This document shows, piece by piece, positions 12,211 to 55,602 of a stretch of DNA of 64,000 nucleotides. This stretch comes from Octopus vulgaris. Its lineage: Eukaryota. Position numbers and translations under genes: made by a program. Location: contig OX597834.1 in assembly GCA_951406725.2 (NCBI GenBank), positions 29,760,001 to 29,824,000 of the forward strand. The letters run 5' to 3'. Positions within the stretch are counted from its first letter, which is position 1. The number at the start of each line of letters is the position of its first letter. Below the pieces are notes generated by a model, which made no database searches, had not been told where the DNA came from, and saw only the letters and a list, made by a program, of their open reading frames with translations.

Positions 12211-12302
12211 CTATTTTGATAAGTTTTTTAATATTCTTATGGTATTTGTATCTACAAAATATTTTTGACTTTCTTTCTTTTTCACTTTTGGATAGTTCTT
12301 CT

Positions 12303-12732
12303 GGATCTTTTCAGTTTGAACGGCAGTTTTTCCTAGCGGTATCATATGAAATTATCACCCATAATTATGACCCTAGTATCGATCTATTGCATTTCAATCT
12401 GTTTAGTGTTAGGGTTAGTTAGGGTTAGGGTTGGGGGCAAGGGTATCTTTTTTTCCTTCAGAGATGTAAATAAACCCAATCTGTTTCTTAAACGAGGAAC
12501 ATATTCATACAGCACAGAATGTTTTTTACCTCTATAGACGTCAGTGATTGGTTGAAATTGCAGAAATTGAAGAAAAAAAACAACAAATATCTTACAAACT
12601 ATAGAATTTTCTCAATAAAGCCAAGAGAAAAAGATGTTTTATAAACACATTCTACCAGTATATGAAGTTTAAAAGTGTTTAGTTACACAGAAATTATTTT
12701 TAAAAAACTGCCGTTCAAACCGAAAAGATTCC
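12303..12732. mobile_element. GG-terminated MITE (Merlin-like), copy 1
   Basis: TIR GGATCTTTTC.GTTTGAACGGCAGTTTTT; near-identical copy at 49446; internal TTAGGG units; no TSD visible here. Confidence 0.88.
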
Positions 12733-13316
12733 AAGGTACAAGTTAGCTACAAAGATCAAGGTATACTTGCAAGATAAACAGAATGAGGTATTAACTTCAG
12801 GCTTCCCACCCTTGATCCAGCAAAATAGTTGTGTGTGCGTGTGTGTGTGTGTGTGTGCTTGAGTTTAGTGAAGAGTAAAATATAATCATAAGAAGACAAA
12901 GAAAGAATTTAGCAAATCTTTAATGAGAAGCTAGAATTGTTCCTATACCATTCTGCTTATAATGCCATTGTGTACAAAAGTTCCAGTAAAAAGTTATGTA
13001 ACATTTGTGGTTTTAGACACTAAAGTGGAACTTCATCAGCCTTGCATTAAAAAGTGCACAATTACACTGTACCTCTTGCATTGGCACAATGTAAAAGCAC
13101 ACCTTTTGATGCCAGTCTGGGCATGTCGAACAGCAATCTGGTATCTTTGGATACACGTGATGCACTTCTTCATTTTCCATAAGCCAGATCCACTAACAAG
13201 GCTTCGGTCAGTCTTGGGCTGTAAAAGAAGACACTTGTCCAAGTTGCTGTACAGTGGAATTGAACCTGAAACCACATGGTTGGAAAGCAAACTTCTTAAC
13301 CACACAGCCATGCTTG

Positions 13317-25647: not shown

Positions 25648-26600
25648 TAGGGTGCAGTGAATAAATTGTTGTCTAAATTATGCAAAAATGAAAATAACAC
25701 TGACATCTCATTTTAACAGATATATTTACCAAAATTACATAAAAATATCTTTGAATACTAAAGAGTAAATTTATTCAATAAAATCGCCATTGGCTTCAAC
25801 CATGGCCTCCAGACCACTTTGGAATCTTCTGCAACTCTTCTGGATGGTCTCCTTCTTTAAGTTAGTGAATGCTGTCATAATCCTTGCCTTCAGTTCATCT
25901 TTGCTGTTACAAGGGAGTTTTGTTGGTCTCTCACTCGACTGCACCCCACACATAATAATCAAGTAGGTTGCATTCTGGGGAGTTAGGGATGATGTGGTCA
26001 CTGAAATTATTTGAGAACCATGACTGAGTTCTCCTGCTTGTGTTGCATGGTGCAGAGTCTTGTTGCCAGAAATAGTGTCTTCCAGCAGCCACTCTCTTGA
26101 CCCAGAGCAGCACTTGCTCCTCCAGCCACTTGGCATACAGTGTTGAGTTTGAGGTCATGCAGGAAGATGTATGTAGACATAACTAGTGATGTTGACTGGA
26201 TGTTTGATTTTTATCACTCTCGGTACGTTTTGTGAATACGGTACGTCAATGGTTGGTCTGTGTGTTCACCATCTGACCCTGGCAGAAATTTTTTCTCGTT
26301 TGAGAGAAAAAAAAGTATGTTCAGTTGGAAAGGATGCTTGAGTTTGTTCAAAAACTTCCTAGTATGGTAGTTCTTCTTGTCCTTGATGGCTTGGGGTAAA
26401 AATTGGCCCTTTCTCATCTTGTATGAGGAATACCAAATGTCTTCATGCACTACGTGCCTGATAAGAAACTCAGACACTCCCATGTCCCTGGTAATGGATC
26501 TGATTGACTTGAAGGTATCATTGTCAATCATGGCCTGAATCTCACCAACAAATTCAGGAGTTCTTTTCTTATCAGAGCAATCAGAGTGAGTTAAAACCCT
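25648..26600 (-). pseudogene. Tc1/mariner DD37D-like transposase remnant with one terminal repeat
   Basis: FLSNEKKF, WQQDSAPCNTSRRTQSW, PNSPECNLLDYYVWGAVE, ...VEANGDFIE*; frameshifted; end TAGGGTG at 25648. Confidence 0.9.
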
Positions 26601-33283: not shown

Positions 33284-33769
33284 GTATATGTATGCATATA
33301 AGCATGGGTGTATGGTAAAGAAAATCTTTTCACAACTAGATAGCTTTTATATTCAGTACTATTATGTGACACTTTGGACAAATGTCTTCTACTGTATCTC
33401 TGGGTTGACTAATACTTTGTGACTGAATCTGGTAGACAGTGTATGAACTCCTGTTGTGCATGTGTGTGTTAATATTTCACTTAGGTAAAGCGATACTAAT
33501 AATGTGACATCAGAACGCAATATACATATTCTTCAGAATAAAGTATTAGTTGAGTACAGAGTGTAACTATAGAATTGAATAAATAAATGACAAAGGCACA
33601 GGAAATTATGAAATGAGCATCATTAGCTTAGAGCTGTTTCTGCTATGAAATACAGGCACCCAGAGTTGAGTGCTTGTGCATCAACTTACAGCTTCCTCCG
33701 ACCTTCTAAAATGAAGTGTCCTTCATGTTAGAAGCTCCAGTTTTTTTATCACACACACACACACATATA

Positions 33770-35455
33770 TAGTGTCATGCACAAAATTATTGGCACCTCT
33801 ACAACATTCGATGATGAACAATCAATAGTGTATTATCCTTTATGCTTAATAACTTCCTGCTATCTGTGAGGGCAATTTCCAATTATCCTCGGGCACAGAT
33901 CAAAAGGAATTTTAGTCCATTCTTCAATTACATATTCTTTCAGCTTCAATTACATATTCTTCAAGTTAGATGGCCCTCTTGCTTTCACTCTTTTCTCTAG
34001 CTCCCATAATAAATTTTCTATTGGGTTTAAGTCAGGACTTTGAACCAGCCATGGGAGTACCTCTATCTTGTTTTCTTTTAACCAATTTTGGATTAAACAT
34101 GAGGTATGCTTGGGATCATAAAGGTTCCACAGTGTGCTGATCCCAGATGCTTCACCAATAACTTCAGGTTTACATCCAAAACACCAACACAATTCTATTT
34201 TGTTATCGTTCCTTCAATTTAAGTTCATTTTCCAGAGCCTTTAGCAGAAAAATAGGTCTGCAGTATTATGCAGCCTCTGCCATGTTTGATGGTATTCTTT
34301 GGATTGTCGGCTTCTCTTCTTTTACTCTAAATGCTAGTCCTATCATTGTGGCCTAACTCAAGATTGGTTTCATTAGACCATAGAACTGAGTGCCAAAAAC
34401 ATTCATCCTTCTTCAGAAAGAACCACGTAAACTTCAAACAATCTGTTAAGTGCTTCTTCAACAATAGTGTATTCCAGGGATGCCTTCAAACCACCTCTAT
34501 TGAAAGTTTGAGTAATCGTTGACCTTGAAGTATGAACTCTGATAGCTGTCAATTTGACTTTCATCACTGCAGTCATTATCTTAGGATCATCGTTGACTGT
34601 TTTAATTAACATTCACTCATCTCATTCTGAAAAGTGTTGTTTTTTGTTTTTTTTCTGCAGTATCAATTCTTGTTCTCCAACAAATATTTCATGATTATGT
34701 TGCAAACAGTTGATTGAGCAATATTGAAATTCTTAGATATTTGTTTCTTTACTACCCACAAGGGGCTAAACTTAGAGGGGACAAACAAAGACAGACAAAC
34801 GGATTAAGACGATTACATCGACCCCAGTGCTTAACTGGTACTTAATTTATTGACCCTGAAAGGATGAAAGGCAAAGTCGACCTCGGCGGAATTTGAACTC
34901 AGAACGTAGCGGCAGACGAAATACGGCTACGCATTTCGCCCGGCATGCTAACAGTTCTGCCAGCTCGCCGCCTTGAAATTGAAATTCTTAGATATTATAT
35001 AATAACCATCTCCAGCAGTGTGAGCATCAACAATCTTTTTCCTTGAGCCAGAACTGTGCTCCAGCACCCTCACCATGACATTGCAGATAGGTTTGTTGAC
35101 CAAAAGAAGGTTGCAAGAACATTGTGTAAGTGATGTCACAAGGCCTTAGAAGTTCCTGTATTTTACAACTTTCTCAGGATGATGTAATGTCTATTAATCA
35201 ACATGTATTCTTATATTGTAGTCCAAATCAGTGTTTTTTGCAATGCAATAATAAAAATTATTTTGAACCATGCTTGAAAGATTTATCAGCTGAGATTACC
35301 AAACATCACCAGACGTCCTCTTTTGGCAAAATTTATGCTTTAGTTGTTCACATTATTGTGACATAAGAGCACTTTTGTACACATCTCATTTTAAAAACAA
35401 ATTCAATAAAAACCCATTTTTGACAAGGAGTGCCAATAATTTGTATGCATAACTG
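33770..35455 (-). mobile_element. Tc1 (DD34E) element with both TIRs, transposase degraded
   Basis: TIRs TAGTGTCATGCACAAAATTATTGGCAC / GTGCCAATAATTTGTATGCATAACTG; DPKHTS...LPWLVQSPDLNPIENLLWELEKRV. Confidence 0.88.
34742..34972 (-). mobile_element. SINE A inserted in the Tc1 element
   Basis: Full copy; TSD ATTGAAATTCTTAGATATT at 34723-34741 and 34978-34996. Confidence 0.93.
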
Positions 35456-35470
35456 TGTGTATGTGTGTGT

Positions 35471-35508
<38 letters not shown>

Positions 35509-47873: not shown

Positions 47874-48829
47874 TAGCTTTTATTTCATTTCCCTTCGTAT
47901 TATCTCTTGAAACAAATTTACTTTTCCTCCATGACCCACCAGCACGACCACCACCACCACCACAAACGTCCCTAATGCCCCCTTGCCTGACTTATTTTAA
48001 TGTTGTTAGGGAGGAGGGGTATTGTTGTTGGGGGGGGAGGTGGGGGTTTGTTGTTTCTTTTCATTTTAAGTATTCTGTCAAAGAGAGAGAATAAAGCTGT
48101 GACTCTTGTTGAAGACGTGATAGTATTTATATTATTGGGATGATAATGATGATGACGATGGTAGCGGTGATGCTGACACTGATGATGACGACGATGACTT
48201 GTTGCAATTCTGGAAAAGAAAAAAAAATGGTATTTGTGGTTGTTGTTGCTGTTATTGTTTAGTTACTGATCAACTCTGACTGAGCAGCAAACACATGATC
48301 AAAAGCATTCCAGCTGTGACCACCACATCTTTTTGCTATAGAATCCAATAGGCATTATCTCACAAGTCTTTTTTCTTTTTGTTTGTTTGTTTATGTGCAA
48401 CCTTCAAATTGAGGATATGTGGCTGCTATTCCAAGCAGGATGAATGGCCACATTGTGGCTCCTTCACTATAGTTGTTTTTTGTTTCTGTTTAGCCCCAGG
48501 TCACCTATAAAATGATTCCCTGCATACTATAATCCCATATTCCTTTGATCAGTGGAGAAGAAACAGTAGTCTCAGGTGCAATCCCAGGTGTGCTTAACAA
48601 GGGTTGATTTATGCTAAAAGAAGCAAATTCAAAAATATATTTAGTTAAAAAAGACCTAGAAAGCATCAGAATAAAGCTGGAATGGCTAGAATCACTGAAG
48701 TTCAATGTTTGGTAAAGAAGTCCCAAATATTGATATGCTAACATTGATAGAATATTATTTCTAATTTAGGCGGCAGAACAATTTCGAAAAGTAAACATGG
48801 AATGCAAACAAGGAAAGAATAGTCTTGAG

Positions 48830-49320
48830 TTATTCCCTACTTGGCAAAATACTTTCCAATGCTACCCAAGAAAGTTTGCATAAAAAAAAAAAACTCATTA
48901 AAAACAATATGGAAATTGCAATAAAATATATGCAACAAAACAAAGACAAGAAAACCATGCAAAAGGAGAAGAGTCCTTGATTTAAATTCCAGAGATATTC
49001 ATCTCAAAACGAAGATCTAATTGCATTTGAAAACAATCTCTTTAACTTAATAATGAATACAGAATTTAATTTTAGAAAGAATAATTTATTACACAAGCTA
49101 AACTCAGGCTAAATAACAATTAAATCCTCCAAGAACTTCTTCATGTTTGAAGGCAAAACAAGGAATTTATAAGAGGCAGATAATGACACTTTTATATAAG
49201 GGAATAATAAACTTCTACAATGCAACCAACAACATATACAATAATATCAAAATGAAAGTACAACAGATAGCTGCAAAGCATAACATCCAAGTCAAATTTA
49301 AATGCTTCACCTCAAAAACA
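48830..49320 (+). pseudogene. Penelope-like element pre-RT N-terminal fragment
   Basis: QNEDLIAFENNLFNLIMNTEF...KLNSG*ITIKSSKNFFMFEGKTRNL resembles the PLE L..FE.DL..LI.NI.F...ADKT.N region. Confidence 0.55.
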
Positions 49321-49445
49321 TTTGTCACCACATTGGAGGAAAAATCTATCTTATATGTAGACTCATTAATTCTTCCCGAAGTAGTTCTGGCATAGTAAGT
49401 AAAATAGTCATAGAGTAATGGCTGAAACAAAGCAATCTGAATTTT

Positions 49446-49860
49446 GGATCTTTTCGGTTTGAACGGCAGTTTTTTCTAGCGGTGTCATATGAAATTGTCA
49501 CCCATAATTATGACCCTAGTATCGATCTATTGCATTTCAATCTGTTTTAGGGTTAAGGGTGGGGGGAAGGGTATCTTTTTTTCTTCAGAAATGTAAATAA
49601 ACCCAATCTGTTTCTTAAACGAGGGAAATATTCATACGGCACAGAATGTTTTTTTTACCTCAATGGATGTCATTGATTGGTTGAAATTGCAGAAATTGAA
49701 GGAAAAAAAACAACAAATATCTCACAAACTATAGAATTTTCTCAATAAAGCCAAGAGAAAAAGATGTTTTATAAACACATTCTGCCAGTATACGAAGTTT
49801 AAAAGTGTTTAGTTACGTGGAAATTATTTTAAAAAACTGCCGTTCAAACCGAAAGGTTCC
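49446..49860. mobile_element. GG-terminated MITE (Merlin-like), copy 2
   Basis: ~29-bp TIRs; perfect 8-bp TSD TGAATTTT (49438-49445, 49861-49868). Confidence 0.92.
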
Positions 49861-51706
49861 TGAATTTTTATCAATGGAATAAAATTGTAGAGTCATCATT
49901 TGGTTCACATATGGAAAGTTATATAAATTGATGGTTGAACATTTAATTCTTCCATAAGCTAGGATCAACAAGGAGATAGCCAATATGAAGAAGAAATCAA
50001 GTGCTTATTAGAATTATTGAGTATTTGGAAGATAAAGTTTATATGGTATAACACAGTGTACAACATTGGTGTAAAAACTGGTTGTGAAAAATATTTCTCA
50101 ATTGGTCTTTAACTACAGATTTCGGTCAAACTAAATGATTTGACCTAGATTTCTGCCCCACTGACTTTCGATGATCATAACTTTCAGAAAAATGGATATT
50201 TTTTAATGAAATTTTATACGAATATGTGTCATGTAGATTCCGAATATACAAAATTTGGTGGGGGGAGTGTTTTAGGAGGAGGTGAGGTGGGGAATTTTGG
50301 AAAATTCACTGGAGTCCCCTTCAATTCCTCATAACTTTCAAGAAAATAGATATTTTTTATTGAAATTTTCTACAAGTATACCTCAGATTATGTAGATTCT
50401 GAGGAAATAGAAATTTGTTGGAGGGTGGGACATTCAGAGGCTATTTTTGAGAACTGTTCTCCACCTGGGAACAAATCGTCCATATTTGTTTCATTTTATC
50501 TGTTTTGTGCGTTTGTGCATCCATATATTTCTACTCAAGCAGCTGGCAATGAAGTTGTCACCAGAAAACTCGTATTGCTAAAAATAACAGCTAAACGTCT
50601 AAACGTTTCTAACAGAAGGGCATTGAATGGAATAATTCCCCGTTTCAACTTTTTTTAATCACATATGTGTTTGTGAGTGTGTGAGAGGACACTGAGAATA
50701 AGTATGCCACCCCTTTGTCCTTTTTTTTTCTCTCTCTCCGTTTTGACAAGGATTTTTCAAATTTCATTTTACACTCAGGTCTTCCAGCTGATGTGGGTCG
50801 TGGGGGACATTTTAGGAAAAAAATTTTTTTTTAAATTTATGATTTTTTTTTCACCTCATCCCCATGCACTTAAAAACCATGAGAGAAGCTTTTTCGGTAC
50901 TCCTTTATATCACACACCTTTTCTTACGAAAAATTATTTTTTAACCGTAAAAGGCTTCTCCCATCGTTTTTAAGTGCTTACGACAGGAAAAAAAGAAAAA
51001 AATTGGCCAAAATTTCTTCAGTCTGGATTAGGGGTAAAGAGGAGAAAGGAGGGAGGGGAAAAAAGTTAGACCCTGGTGAAAAAGGAATTCGAGAAATCAC
51101 CGTCAAAACGGAGATTTCGGATCCAAAAACTCTGCCAATACTGAAATTAGTCATTACTCATTTTGCCCCTATTTAGACATAATTTTCTGAAAATGAAAAA
51201 TTATCAAATTAGACATTAATGTGCAAAAATATAACAATTGACATGGAATGCAACAGAGAAAAGGATAGAAATTGTTAAACAGCAAAAATTTGAATCATTT
51301 TTGATTTGCAACTTCAATTACAATCGAGTCGAACGAAGTTGAGGAAAAATGTCTTGAAAGAAAAGTAACACTCTCCATAGTAATTTCAAATGTTTGAGCA
51401 ATTGGAATTGTACAAAATGACGAAAAATATAGACGGAAGAAAGAAAGCAAAAAGTTTCGATTTTATGAAAAACATTGCAAGATATGTGCATTTATAACTA
51501 AAGCTAAATTCAAAATTTACATTCAAGAATATTTCTTACTTACTTGTTCGTTCGTTCGTGAAGACCAGTTTTCGCTGCATCAGAGAAATAATAAAGTCTA
51601 CAAGGGTCAATATATGTGGGTGTGTTTGGCCCTTTAATTCCAGGATCAAGGGTCAAATTATGCATTGTTAAAACAAAATTGGGTTCCTTTCTGTTAAACT
51701 ATTTCT

Positions 51707-53321
51707 TCAAGCTACAAAATGAAAATCTAATAATATTTGCGAAAAAGGGAAAAAAATATTTAGTGTATGTTGTATTCTGATCTTATAAAATGTGTATTGT
51801 TCTGCAATTTGAACAAGATGTTCAAATTTTCTCCTGGGGTACCTCTTCCACCACATAAACTCGATTAAATTTTGAGGGAACAACTTGGAAAAGGTACCAG
51901 AAGTTTGTCGATATTTGCACTTAGCATACACGCCCACATGGTTTCCACATGGTTTGTGTGGACACCTTTGGTTTCATCTGAAGAGCAAGATGGGGTTGGG
52001 GAGGAAGACCCCTGCCACCGAGTGAATACGAAAAACGATGGAAGGATGTGATGAGAAAGGTGGGTGTGAGAAACCCAGCTTAATCATCGAAGAAAGGAAA
52101 AATTAGTTGTTGGGCCTTCTGGGCTACCGGGTTCAAATTTTGAACCTGCAATTTTTTCCCTTTTTTCCCCCTTTTTACCATGTTATGTTCTCTAGTTTTA
52201 TTTTTAAAAAATACAAAAGTTCTCGTTGTAAAGGCAAAAGTAAACCAATTATTCGTTTAAAGGCAAAAGCAAGCCAAGGTTTCGTTTATTTCATATTATA
52301 ATTAAATTTTTAAAAGTCTCATTCGAACTCTTGTAACATTTTTGTATTTGTCTGTCTTGTTATGTCCTTTTCTATGTTAGATCTCATGATCATAATAAAG
52401 ATTTGCGAAATGCGTTGCCGTATTTCGTCTGCCGTTACATTCTGAGTTCAAATTCCGCCGAGGTCGACTTTGCCTTTCATCCTTTGGGGGTCGATAAATT
52501 AAGTACCAGTTACGCACTGGGGTCGATGTAATCGACTTAATCCGTTTGTCTGTCCTTGTTTGTACCCTCTGTGTATAGCCCCTTATGGGCAGTAACGAAA
52601 TGAATAAAGATTTTACCTTCGGTTTCATCAACAAATGATATAGAATGGAAACCTAGATTTTGCAAAATACGGTACACCGCCCATTCGTCGGTAAAAATTA
52701 TATTACATGGATGGACATGTTGCTGGCTAATGGATTCCAAAGGATCCATGGACCGGCTATTATCCGGCCACTCTGGAAGGAAGCAGTTCATGGGATTGTC
52801 CAATGAAATCCCACCCAACACTCGAATGCCGTCGTAGTGCGCGCCCCGCCGGTTTTTTTCCGGTGCAGAAATTACGATCCGTAAATGGCGACCAGGACAC
52901 CAGTACCGCCAATCGTTACCGGATTGTTAATAATGTTTTCTGCTAAAACGTCTCGGCAGAAATTAGCCAAATACCACCACAGTGGACCAACTTGCAATAT
53001 TAAGTTCACGCATCATTGATTTTACTGGTTCCTCAATGGACCCCCAATACAGAATCTGCAGTATTATACCTAAAGAGAGGTGGCCATTAGAGAAAAACGA
53101 TCTGTTTCTAATGGAGTAGCTCTTCCGACATCGCCGAGAGCAGTGCACTTCCAAGTATATCCATCTCGATGCTGCGATGATTTAACTAAGGAAAAATTGC
53201 GGCCACATTCACAGACATGAGCTTGAGCTAAAAGCCCATATATTTTTCACCAGTCAATTAGCCCGCCATGGTCAGTGCATATTCGAATAATGTCTGATAA
53301 GTGAAATGGAGGATGGTGCAT
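51707..53321 (-). pseudogene. Merlin / IS1595 (ISXO2-like) DDE transposase pseudogene
   Basis: ATG 53321; CECG...DGYTWKC...CRKSYSIRNRSFF, ANFCRDV...IGGTGVLVAIYGS* (VEIDES site mutated), VLGGI, IIFTDEWAVY, FVDETEG / [21 protein letters not shown]; stops, frameshifts and an insertion. Confidence 0.9.
52404..52600 (+). mobile_element. SINE A, 5'-truncated, inside the transposase insertion
   Basis: Family match; flanked by AATAA(A)GATTT. Confidence 0.9.
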
Positions 53322-55602
53322 GATATCGACGTTAGAATTCAAAAATGGGAAGCAGGACAAAAGATGATGATGGTTTCAATCAAAAATGAGAAGAGAATAA
53401 AAGCTGGACAACAGAAGCTGATGGTTTCAGTTCGAAATTCCTGCAGAATAAACTTTAAAACCGGATAAAATTGTTGATAATTGATCAGTCATTCTTTGCA
53501 GAAATCCCTAAACCCCCATGTAAATGGTAAATGATTTTGGAACTTTCTGTCTAAGAACTCCTGCAGGACCATTGTCCGTCCTTCAGCACGGACAAACTTT
53601 AATCGAGTTTATGTGGTGGAAGAGGTAACCCAGGAGAAAATTTGAACATCTTGTTCAAATTGCAGAACAATACACATTTTAAAAAATCAAAACATAACAT
53701 ACACTAAATGTTTTTATTCTTTTTCGCAAATATTATTAGATTTTCATTTTGTAGCGTGAAGAAATAGTTTAACAGAAAGAAACTCAATTTTCTTTTTACA
53801 ATGCATAATTTGACCATTGACCCTGGAATTAAAGGGCCAAACACACCCACATATATTGACCCTTGTAAACTTTATTATTTCTCTGATGCAGCGAAAACTG
53901 GTCTTCACGAACGAACGAACATGTAAGTAAGAAATGTTCTTAAAATGTAAATTTTGAATTTAGCTTTAGTTATAAATGCACATATCTTGAAATGCTTTTC
54001 ATTAAATCGAAACTTTTTCTATCTTTCTTCCGTCTATATTTTTCGTCATTTTGTACAATTCCAATTGCTCAAACATTTGAAATTACTATGGAGAGTGTAC
54101 TTTTCTTTCAAGACATTTTTCCTCAACTTCGTTCGACTCGATTGTAATTGAAGTTGCAAATCAAAAATTATTCAAATTTTTGCCGTTTAACAATTCCTAT
54201 CCTTTTCTCTGTTGCATTCCATGACAACTGTTATATTTTTGCACATTAATGTCTAATTTGATAATTTTCCATTTTCAGAAAATTATGTCTAAACTGGGGC
54301 AAAATGAGTAATGACTAATTTCAGTATTGGCAGTGTTTTTGGATCTGAAATCTCTGTTTTGACGGTGATTTTTCGAATTTCTTTTTCACCAGGGTCTAAC
54401 TTTTTTTCCCCTCCCTCCTTTCTCCTCTTTACTCCCATCCAGACCGAAGAAATTTCGGCCATTTTTTTCTTTTTTCCTGCCGTAAGCACTTAAAAACGAT
54501 GGGAGAAGCCTTTACGGTTAGAAAAAAAACAAATTTTTCGCAAGAAAAGGTGTGTGATATAAAGGAGTACCGAAAAAGCTTCTCTCGTGGTTTTTAAGTG
54601 CATGGGGATGAGGTGAAAAAAAAATCATAAATTTTCAAAAAAAAATTTTCATAAAATGTCCCCCCACGACCACCACATCAGCTGGAAGACCTGAGTGAAA
54701 AATGAAATTAGAAAAATCCTTGTCAAAACGGAGAGAGAGAGGGGAGGAAAGCACAAAGGGGTGGCGTGCTTATTCTCAGTGTCCTCACACACACACACAA
54801 ACACATATATATGTGATTTTTAAAAAAATTGAAACGGGGAATTATTCCATTCAGTGCCCTTCTGTTAGAAATGTTTAGACGTTTAGCTGGTATTTCTAGC
54901 ATAACGAGTTTTCTGATGACAACTTCATTGCCAGCTGCTTGAGTAGAAATATATGGATGCACAAACGCACTAAACAGAGAAAATGAAACAAATATGGACG
55001 ATTTGTTCCCAGGTGGAGAACAGTTCTCAAAAATAGACCCCCCTGAATGTCCCCCCCACCCCCACCCCACAAAATTTCTATGTCCTCAGAATCTCTATAG
55101 TCCGAGGTATACTTGTAGAAAATTTCAATAAAAAAATATCTATTTTCTTGAAAGTTATGAAGAATTGAAGTGGACTCCGGTGAATTTTCTGAAATTCCTC
55201 ACCTCAGCTCCTCCTAAAACACTCCCCCCCCAAAAAATAATTTTGTATATCCGGAATCTACATGACACATATTCGTATAAAATTTCCTTAAAAAATATCC
55301 ATTTTTCTGAAAGTTATGATCATCGAAAGTCCGTGGAGCAGAAATCTGTAGTTATGCTGGATGGTTAATGTCGTTGAGGACTACAATATAAAAAGATTAC
55401 CAGTTATTTTCTACTCTCTCCACACTTTTTCACTTCTGCACATTGGTCATGTGACAGTCTGCCATATCTCAGCATTAGCACATCTACATCTGCTCCGAAA
55501 TCCAGGCTGTTTAGTCCAAAAGATTGCTTGATTAAAACAATTAAATGCAACACATTCATATTTAGGTGCATACATACACACATCCATCCATACATACATA
55601 CA

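Follow-up and report, generated by a model that had tools for sequence, protein, structure and literature searches.

A decayed Merlin/IS1595-type transposase gene within a giant inverted repeat with non-Merlin ends in Octopus vulgaris

The 64,000 nucleotides of Octopus vulgaris DNA analyzed here (contig OX597834.1 of assembly GCA_951406725.2, positions 29,760,001 to 29,824,000 of the forward strand; hereafter the window) contain a 5.24-kb unit, located at 50112-55352, in which a broken Merlin/IS1595-type transposase gene lies between two inverted arms of ~1.75 kb each (table 1). The tips of the arms are not those of a Merlin element. This architecture is odd, it is real, and most likely it is the product of known processes. 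On balance, the unit is probably a Merlin passenger in an abundant carrier transposon with TA/TTAA-type ends, the arms of which were lengthened by arm-to-arm copying as in Galileo. The unit is now inert and decaying.

In this part of the window, self-alignment detected one long inverted repeat, formed by 50147-51874 and 55347-53593, and the arms pair out to their tips once a 30-nt insertion of the left arm is allowed for. The alignment of the arms has 1,765 columns and an identity of 92.1% (95.3% with gaps excluded), with 47 transitions and 33 transversions; 27 indels and the 30-nt insertion add to the differences. The divergence is even along the arms (82 of 1,720 sites; Jukes-Cantor distance 0.049; chi-square p 0.77 over nine bins), which is an indication that the composite either moved after it had formed or was formed quickly on site. 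With the substitution rate of 0.0036 per million years given in PMC13282606, the last time at which the arms were equal comes to ~7 million years ago, a minimum if conversion between them continued. The spacer (51875-53592) has 1,718 bp, and the unit without its later insertions would measure ~4.56 kb. The left inner junction lies within an unbroken reading frame, and the right arm opens with the mirror of the last 28 transposase codons and the stop (53599-53682).

The tips read TA-ACTACAG...CTGTAGT-TA, where the hyphens mark the limits of the unit. An alternative parse, TTAA-CTACAG...CTGTAG-TTAT, fits equally; with TA on both sides of one copy, the two are not separable. Described Merlin families (Feschotte 2004, as summarized by Lopes et al. 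2021, PMC8101967) start with GG, produce target-site duplications of 8-9 bp and have inverted repeats of 24-462 bp. The tips of the unit are ACTACAG or CTACAG and not 5'-GG, and its outer ends show no 8-9-bp target-site duplication, nor do the outer flanks share any direct repeat of at least 7 bp. A scan of all symmetric arm positions gave no GG..CC pair with an 8-9-bp duplication. The same scan gave 21 direct repeats of 8-9 bp (with at most one mismatch), all of which are AT-rich palindromes and none of which is beside GG..CC.

A preliminary description, made from the letters of the window alone, had proposed a Merlin/IS1595-type transposase inside ~1.75-kb inverted arms around a ~1.7-kb spacer, with the 3' end of the gene mirrored in the opposite arm and with ends that, lacking 8-9-bp duplications, differ from those of described Merlins. 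These claims hold. The arms lie at 50112-51874 and 53593-55352 (92% identity), the mirrored gene end was recovered at 53599-53679, the ends fall exactly beside the TA dinucleotides at 50110-50111 and 55353-55354, and the identity of the transposase is confirmed by its domain, its relatives and its position in the tree. The canonical form against which the ends were contrasted is found in both the published summary and the five clean relatives presented below.

The nearest relatives of the transposase are at least nine proteins predicted in Octopus bimaculoides; its identity to their majority sequence is 63% (235 residues) and 75% (63 residues). The DDE_Tnp_IS1595 match of the window piece (E 0.004) is under the curated Pfam cut-off, and those of the closest relatives are above it (E 1e-11 to 4e-20). 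Over its whole length, the protein of the Octopus family is alignable with ordinary Merlin proteins, with no domain gained or lost. The gene carries two stops, four frameshifts and a 6-codon deletion. In its catalytic triad, which is intact in most relatives, the first Asp is changed to Tyr and the second Asp and the Glu are retained. Changes are found at 8 of the 57 conserved sites (14%) and at 66 of the 148 variable ones (45%; p 4e-5), a bias which indicates that this transposase was a separately selected subfamily and died later. The six O. bimaculoides copies compared decay evenly (4-8%), three further copies being excluded as frameshift-read.

Among the 40 listed of ~695 rows of variants from other sequencing runs, 27 letters concern the gene: 10 are toward the family residue, 2 away from it, 4 silent, 10 of other kinds and 1 outside the aligned codons. 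The prevalence of changes toward the family residue suggests that some lesions are recent or private. The contigs of three runs also have 26 extra letters over 52566-52947, so that sequence errors, or changes private to this genome, may account for some of the small lesions. Relative to the age of the arms, four frameshifts are found against 6.1 expected, and the eight conserved-site changes compare with 3.1 expected under one baseline (p 0.011) and 9.9 under another (p 0.80).

In a quick tree of 102 rows, with 8 of 22 distant viral loci as outgroup and no named Merlin reference among the rows, the window protein is sister to three O. bimaculoides proteins (SH-aLRT, the Shimodaira-Hasegawa-like approximate likelihood ratio test, 100). 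The next branch consists of locus L023 and the proteins P0006, P0009 and P0012 (support 84). All of these belong to a Merlin-like group of 91 rows (support 98), which also contains the five loci with GG ends and 8-bp duplications.

These five were found among relatives from a metagenome scan, in which 80 of at least 398 confirmed loci were kept, 54 of them with room on both sides. A 14-nt inverted repeat together with a perfect 8-9-bp duplication was required as evidence of ends. Seven loci passed, of which five (L026, L035, L040, L065, and L069) are GG..CC elements of 1,288-1,736 bp with an 8-bp duplication. The other two, L037 and L058, were excluded as low-complexity or palindromic and non-GG. 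Thus defined, every relative with cleanly readable ends is canonical. None of the 80 loci contains an inverted copy of more than 39 nt of the gene end, and nine show repeats of 26-39 nt near the stop. L023, the closest relative with DNA, has a 33-nt repeat with GG before it on the left, and its contig ends ~135 bp past the stop; L023 and L055/L085, the nearest in the tree, have short repeats starting with GG. In L035 (204-1864) and L069 (4287-6022), the two tips differ at positions 3-5 and the perfect 8-bp duplication is kept. As for the proteins, four of 1,600-1,750 aa (P0007, P0011, P0041, and P0133) have several Merlin-query matches each, with five DDE_Tnp_IS1595 stretches in P0007, and are possibly tandem arrays or domesticated genes.

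Contigs of four public runs (at most four samples, from three studies and under three organism labels) were aligned to 51875-55540 at 84% likeness. Among the contigs listed, the inner right junction (53592/53593) is crossed in all four runs and the outer right end in three. The depth of the junction contigs is near single-copy, that is, 35-60 against 45-53 in the flank for runs X1-X3, and 8.7 against 6.4 for X4. Misassembly, which the preliminary description had named as a way for its reading to fail, is unlikely, and the insertion appears to be common to related organisms.

The same contigs give a profile of repetitiveness, in which their summed depth per bin is divided by that of the single-copy flank bin; the profile is rough and is not a copy number. 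Over the gene (52613-53350) the ratio is 1.7-8, and over its upstream region 6-12 and 2.4-3.6. In the first 250 bp of the arm it is 1.7-4.6, with 1.7-3.2 in the innermost part, of which two come from this locus. It rises to 12-16 in the next bin (53843-53965), is 4.5-230 in the middle of the arm and reaches 200-1600 near the tips (54950-55318), beyond which the flank is single-copy. All four runs give a similar profile, and it shows the tips to be part of something far commoner than the transposase gene. The first step of the profile falls where a canonical Merlin end is expected, judging from L023 and from a GGTCAAA motif found here 133 bp past the stop. In depth, the innermost arm does not exceed the gene, which hints at few or no other double-armed copies. 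Exact patterns of the tip region had no match in viral, metagenome and genome contig collections, and no second tip was found within the window.

The unit interrupts a fossil reverse transcriptase gene. Translations of the left flank match Hydra-clade Penelope-like proteins motif by motif and in order, as judged by eye against the supplement of PMC8557442; Pfam, a homolog search and a viral scan gave no scored identification of this fossil. When the flanks are joined, I-G-L-Y of the catalytic motif is read in frame, and the D-G codons follow after 7 nt where 9 are expected. The arms contain no DNA of the flanking fossil, and the unit seems to have entered cleanly, at one point within the catalytic motif of the older gene, as far as the two flanks tell. 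The more familiar TA-CAG parse of the ends was rejected, since it costs the Tyr codon and leaves 15 nt before the D-G codons, an excess of 6 nt.

From the directly observed arms, ends, broken gene with its kinship, secondary insertions and junctions in other runs, the favored history would be as follows. A small Merlin would have landed within a non-Merlin transposon of an abundant kind, the ends of which are of the TA/TTAA type. To this carrier family, many short derivatives of which would share its tips, the outer 1.5 kb of both arms would belong, and the Merlin part would extend from ~135-250 bp past the stop to beyond 53592. Repair copying from the left arm would then have extended the repeat inward, through the Merlin 3' end and into the last 28 codons, and would have overwritten the Merlin 5' end. 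The unit, or the carrier before filling, would have been inserted by a transposase supplied from outside, either of the Tc1/mariner type (TA) or of the piggyBac type (TTAA/TTAT). Whether the composite jumped as a unit or was assembled on site within a short time, the two are held to be equally probable. Also in favor of this history are the GG..CC inserts with 8-bp duplications in the same window, the frequent nesting at this locus, and the precedent of Galileo, in which internal sequence was recruited into the inverted ends. The preliminary description had left the choice between a foldback-like Merlin lineage and a chimera; the depth profile, the ordinary protein and the canonical relatives suit the chimera better, and the Merlin lineage fits less. 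As to the suggested capture of a Merlin transposase by a TA/TTAA-targeting element, the chimera is retained, and "captured" is too strong a word if it means that the carrier uses the Merlin enzyme, which nothing shows.

Several observations weigh against this history. Inside the unit, no Merlin end pair and no 8-bp duplication belonging to one were found. A candidate relic of the Merlin 3' tip, GGTCAAA, has the same tip as a 22-nt insert of the left arm and a distance from the stop resembling that in L023, but it has no partner end and no significance against shuffles; similarly, comparisons among the gene's upstream region, this candidate, the 22-mer and a neighboring MITE (miniature inverted-repeat transposable element) gave no match above shuffles, and the upstream region shows no inverted match to the 3' side and no recognizable Merlin 5' end. 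The inner arm is not detectably younger than the rest, as a late local extension would predict. A gradient of depth from tip to center is also expected of one family with internal-deletion derivatives, and the arm shows further steps besides the first. No carrier transposase was found in the arms and insert, where piggyBac gave no match at E below 0.06 in any of the 12 read-through frames. The decay of the gene does not discriminate between a live and a dead enzyme at the time of equal arms, and would be compatible with an intact one. The canonical relatives with DNA are just 35-49% identical to the window transposase, against 63-75% for the O. bimaculoides family, so that they set the prior and not the answer.

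Among other histories, the unit could be a member of an octopus Merlin subfamily with long foldback arms and TA/TTAA-type ends cut by its own transposase, in which case the abundant repeats sharing its tips would be its MITEs. The perfect symmetry from tip to tip and the clean insertion site agree with this, the even divergence fits an insertion with perfect 1.75-kb arms, the decay allows for an enzyme that was still alive then, internal Merlin ends were not found, and the copy was selected as a separate subfamily (14% against 45%, p 4e-5). On the contrary, all Merlin families described in the summary of PMC8101967 have GG ends and 8-9-bp duplications, as have the five clean relatives. Double-armed copies should double the depth of the arm, yet the innermost arm (1.7-3.2) is below the gene (1.7-8). 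In addition, the 3' region of 1.67 kb is far longer than that of the relatives, and the protein has no unusual feature. Such an origin is rather unlikely, and equally little credence is given to the general case of a switched Merlin lineage, with ACTACAG/CTACAG ends, TA- or TTAA-type targets, 1.75-kb foldback arms into which its own gene extends, and hundreds of MITE copies driven by it. Somewhat more doubtful still is an inverted dimer, formed when a local hop, or the repair of a break, brought two single-armed copies (~2.8 kb without later insertions) together head to head, the second having lost nearly all its gene. It would leave the arms evenly diverged throughout and make the inner junction unique, in agreement with junction contigs near single-copy depth, and two young Merlin families of O. 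vulgaris average ~2.6 kb per insertion (28,998 bp in 11, by the figures in PMC13282606). The right tip, however, meets TA and the fossil host without any left-over 5' end, which calls for a transposase acting on both tips or priming by homologous ends, and the non-Merlin tips remain unexplained, so that the dimer folds into another of the readings.

Were the unit ordinary chromosomal DNA, duplicated in inverted orientation next to a Merlin remnant, its TA ends would be fortuitous. This reading could draw on the 2-bp duplication being weak evidence when alone, and on the right-hand continuation of the Penelope-like gene being a short match, made by eye and 2 nt short. But high repetitiveness extends over the outer 400 bp to the very tip, with single-copy flank beyond, and the arms are free of the fossil whose flanks join in frame at I-G-L-Y, which makes a chromosomal duplication highly improbable. 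An assembly artefact is even harder to credit. The bridging of the junctions covers the right-hand side, no contig spans the whole unit and three runs carry the 26 extra letters, yet the arms differ at 82 sites, by 27 indels and by the 30-nt insertion, and the right-hand crossings (four of four runs at the inner junction, three of four at the outer end, among the contigs listed) come from three studies and three organism labels.

Table 1. Coordinates of the unit, its parts and its flanks (positions in the window)
Feature	Position	Strand	Remarks
Fossil Penelope-like (Hydra clade) reverse transcriptase gene, left part, up to I-G-L in the catalytic motif	48770..50109	+	By eye, no score
Left TA, candidate target-site duplication (or last two bases of the TTAA/TTTA context 50109-50112)	50110..50111	.	
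Left arm: native transposase 3' end and 1.67 kb downstream, to tip ACTACAG	50112..51874	-	Frame unbroken across 51874
Left-arm-only 30-nt insertion	50124..50153	.	22-nt GG..CC hairpin (50124-50145) and 8-bp duplication, 1 mismatch
Subterminal direct repeat, ~155-bp period, 76% identical	50175..50425	+	Mirrored in right arm; in the most abundant part of the arm
Older degenerate palindromic module in each arm	50735..51114 and mirror	.	Two paired segments, 71-81% complementary
GGTCAAA, candidate Merlin 3' tip relic, 133 bp beyond the stop	51651..51657	+	Mirrored at 53809-53815; suggestive only
Full-length Merlin/IS1595-type transposase pseudogene (residues 5-308 of O. bimaculoides family)	51785..53345	-	
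636-bp secondary insertion splitting the gene	51979..52614	.	15-bp direct repeats 51964-51978 and 52615-52629, 1 mismatch
Short interspersed nuclear element (SINE) nested in the 636-bp insertion	52405..52602	+	11-bp duplication AATAAAGATTT
Upstream region of the transposase gene	53346..53592	-	
Right arm: inverted copy of left arm	53593..55352	+	Alignment; inner junction bridged in 4/4 runs
TA at the right end, candidate target-site duplication (alternatively within TTAT 55352-55355)	55353..55354	.	Bridged by listed contigs in 3/4 runs
Likely continuation of Penelope-like fossil (D-G codons, then K-x-I-T-x-x-F)	55355..55420	+	By eye; weaker half

The systems closest to the unit match it in part. 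With Merlin/IS1595 it shares a DDE_Tnp_IS1595 transposase of ~308 aa, nested among eukaryotic Merlin-like proteins. It differs in lacking GG tips and 8-9-bp duplications, in arms of 1.75 kb against 24-462 bp (PMC8101967), in a size of ~4.56 kb (later insertions excluded) against 1.3-1.7 kb, and in having part of the coding sequence within an arm. For comparison, curated bivalve Merlins average 1,635 bp according to PMC10294476, and the supplement of PMC13282606 gives 18 Merlin families with 2.19 Mb for O. vulgaris. Searches of open-license papers found no Merlin with such arms or ends.

The foldback character of the unit, that is, very long inverted ends with internal tandem repeats and recruited, inverted internal sequence, resembles Galileo copies with two recombinant terminal inverted repeats. 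In Galileo, recombinant ends reach up to 1,260 bp and internal sequence is recruited into the inverted ends, for which an arm-copying route was proposed (Marzo et al. 2013, PMC3573991); the length of the ends is not a reliable family character according to the same source. Unlike the unit, Galileo is a member of the P superfamily, makes 7-bp duplications and has its own transposase, and its longest ends (1,260 bp) are found in copies without the gene. Neither a P-superfamily transposase nor a 7-bp duplication was found in the unit, and the piece recruited here includes coding sequence of an enzyme which does not match the tips.

The ends can also be read as those of a piggyBac element (TTAA-C...G-TTAT). 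TTAT is listed as a rare variant of the piggyBac flank, and subterminal direct and inverted repeats are common in that superfamily (Bouallegue et al. 2017, PMC5381638). CTACAG matches five of the six positions of the tip motif given there, in one copy. In contrast, piggyBac terminal repeats have ~14 bp, and the unit contains no piggyBac transposase. TA stands on both sides, as it would beside a Tc1/mariner element, which duplicates TA (PMC5753468), but the TTAA/TTAT reading of this one copy accounts for it as well; the familiar TA-CAG tip is the parse that fits the empty site worse, and the same Pfam scan of arms and insert detected no Tc1/mariner transposase in the unit. Apart from the transposase, the arms contain no gene recognizable by Pfam, and Rfam gave no match. 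The palindromic module of each arm is possibly a nested MITE. A patch of high depth at 54212-54334 is separate from it, and the arms resemble a mosaic of repeats.

Nesting of insertions is common at this locus. The 636-bp insertion which splits the gene has a high read depth and is likely a 5'-truncated retroelement. The SINE inside it has at least six long copies elsewhere in the window, and it swamps the loose contig ends over the unit. A true intron was considered for the 636 bp, as GT..AG is available within the 15-bp repeat, and was rejected because the relatives are contiguous at this point and the insert is repetitive. The 15-bp duplication (51964-52629 region) has AGGT on the gene strand, and exact splicing-out would be possible in principle, as in an intron made by insertion.

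The 30-nt insertion of the left arm looks like a minimal Merlin-type insertion which postdates the equality of the arms; if transposed, its 22-nt hairpin would be an extremely small Merlin-type element. At 250 bp to the left of the unit, a 415-bp MITE (49446-49860) with GG..CC ends and a perfect 8-bp duplication (TGAATTTT) also interrupts the Penelope-like fossil. Its second copy (12299-12734) is 90% identical, with flanks that do not match. A 297-bp GG..CC element at 25650-25946, with an 8-bp duplication (1 mismatch) and in a microsatellite context, is possibly another Merlin-type MITE. The scan of the window for GG..CC with 8-bp duplications gave eight hits, against 0-3 in ten shuffles; besides the three inserts above, the hits include some that are taken to be other repeats. 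The three inserts indicate that canonical Merlin-type chemistry has acted in this genome.

Elsewhere in the window, no host exon was found in the 95 open frames scanned out of 115; the remaining 20 are situated from 49.1 kb on, around the unit. The sole match was a Tc1-type DDE_3 fragment (E 0.00024) of a decayed transposase on the minus strand at ~33750-34740, with a 48-bp inverted repeat partner near 35430-35477. This fossil (33.7-34.7 kb) and the unit have no end sequence in common.

The arms can pair over 28 perfect stretches of at least 21 nt (1,084 nt in all), and a duplex of 1.7 kb and 95% pairing could form if the locus were read through both arms. The very long double-stranded RNA hairpin of the preliminary description is therefore possible on paper, but it needs a transcript crossing both arms; a transcript starting in the upstream region of the gene would hold the left arm alone. 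Such a long duplex, if formed, would bear on research into cephalopod RNA editing and small RNAs.

If the switched Merlin lineage, unlikely as it is, were true, cutting and targeting would differ in one branch of a DDE superfamily whose definition rests on GG ends and 8-9-bp duplications. If the favored history of a Merlin passenger in a non-Merlin carrier is true, nesting and arm-to-arm copying built a giant palindrome which repeat libraries would label "Merlin" from the protein alone. In that case, octopus Merlin counts may include chimeras, and the unit marks an abundant, unclassified family of ends.

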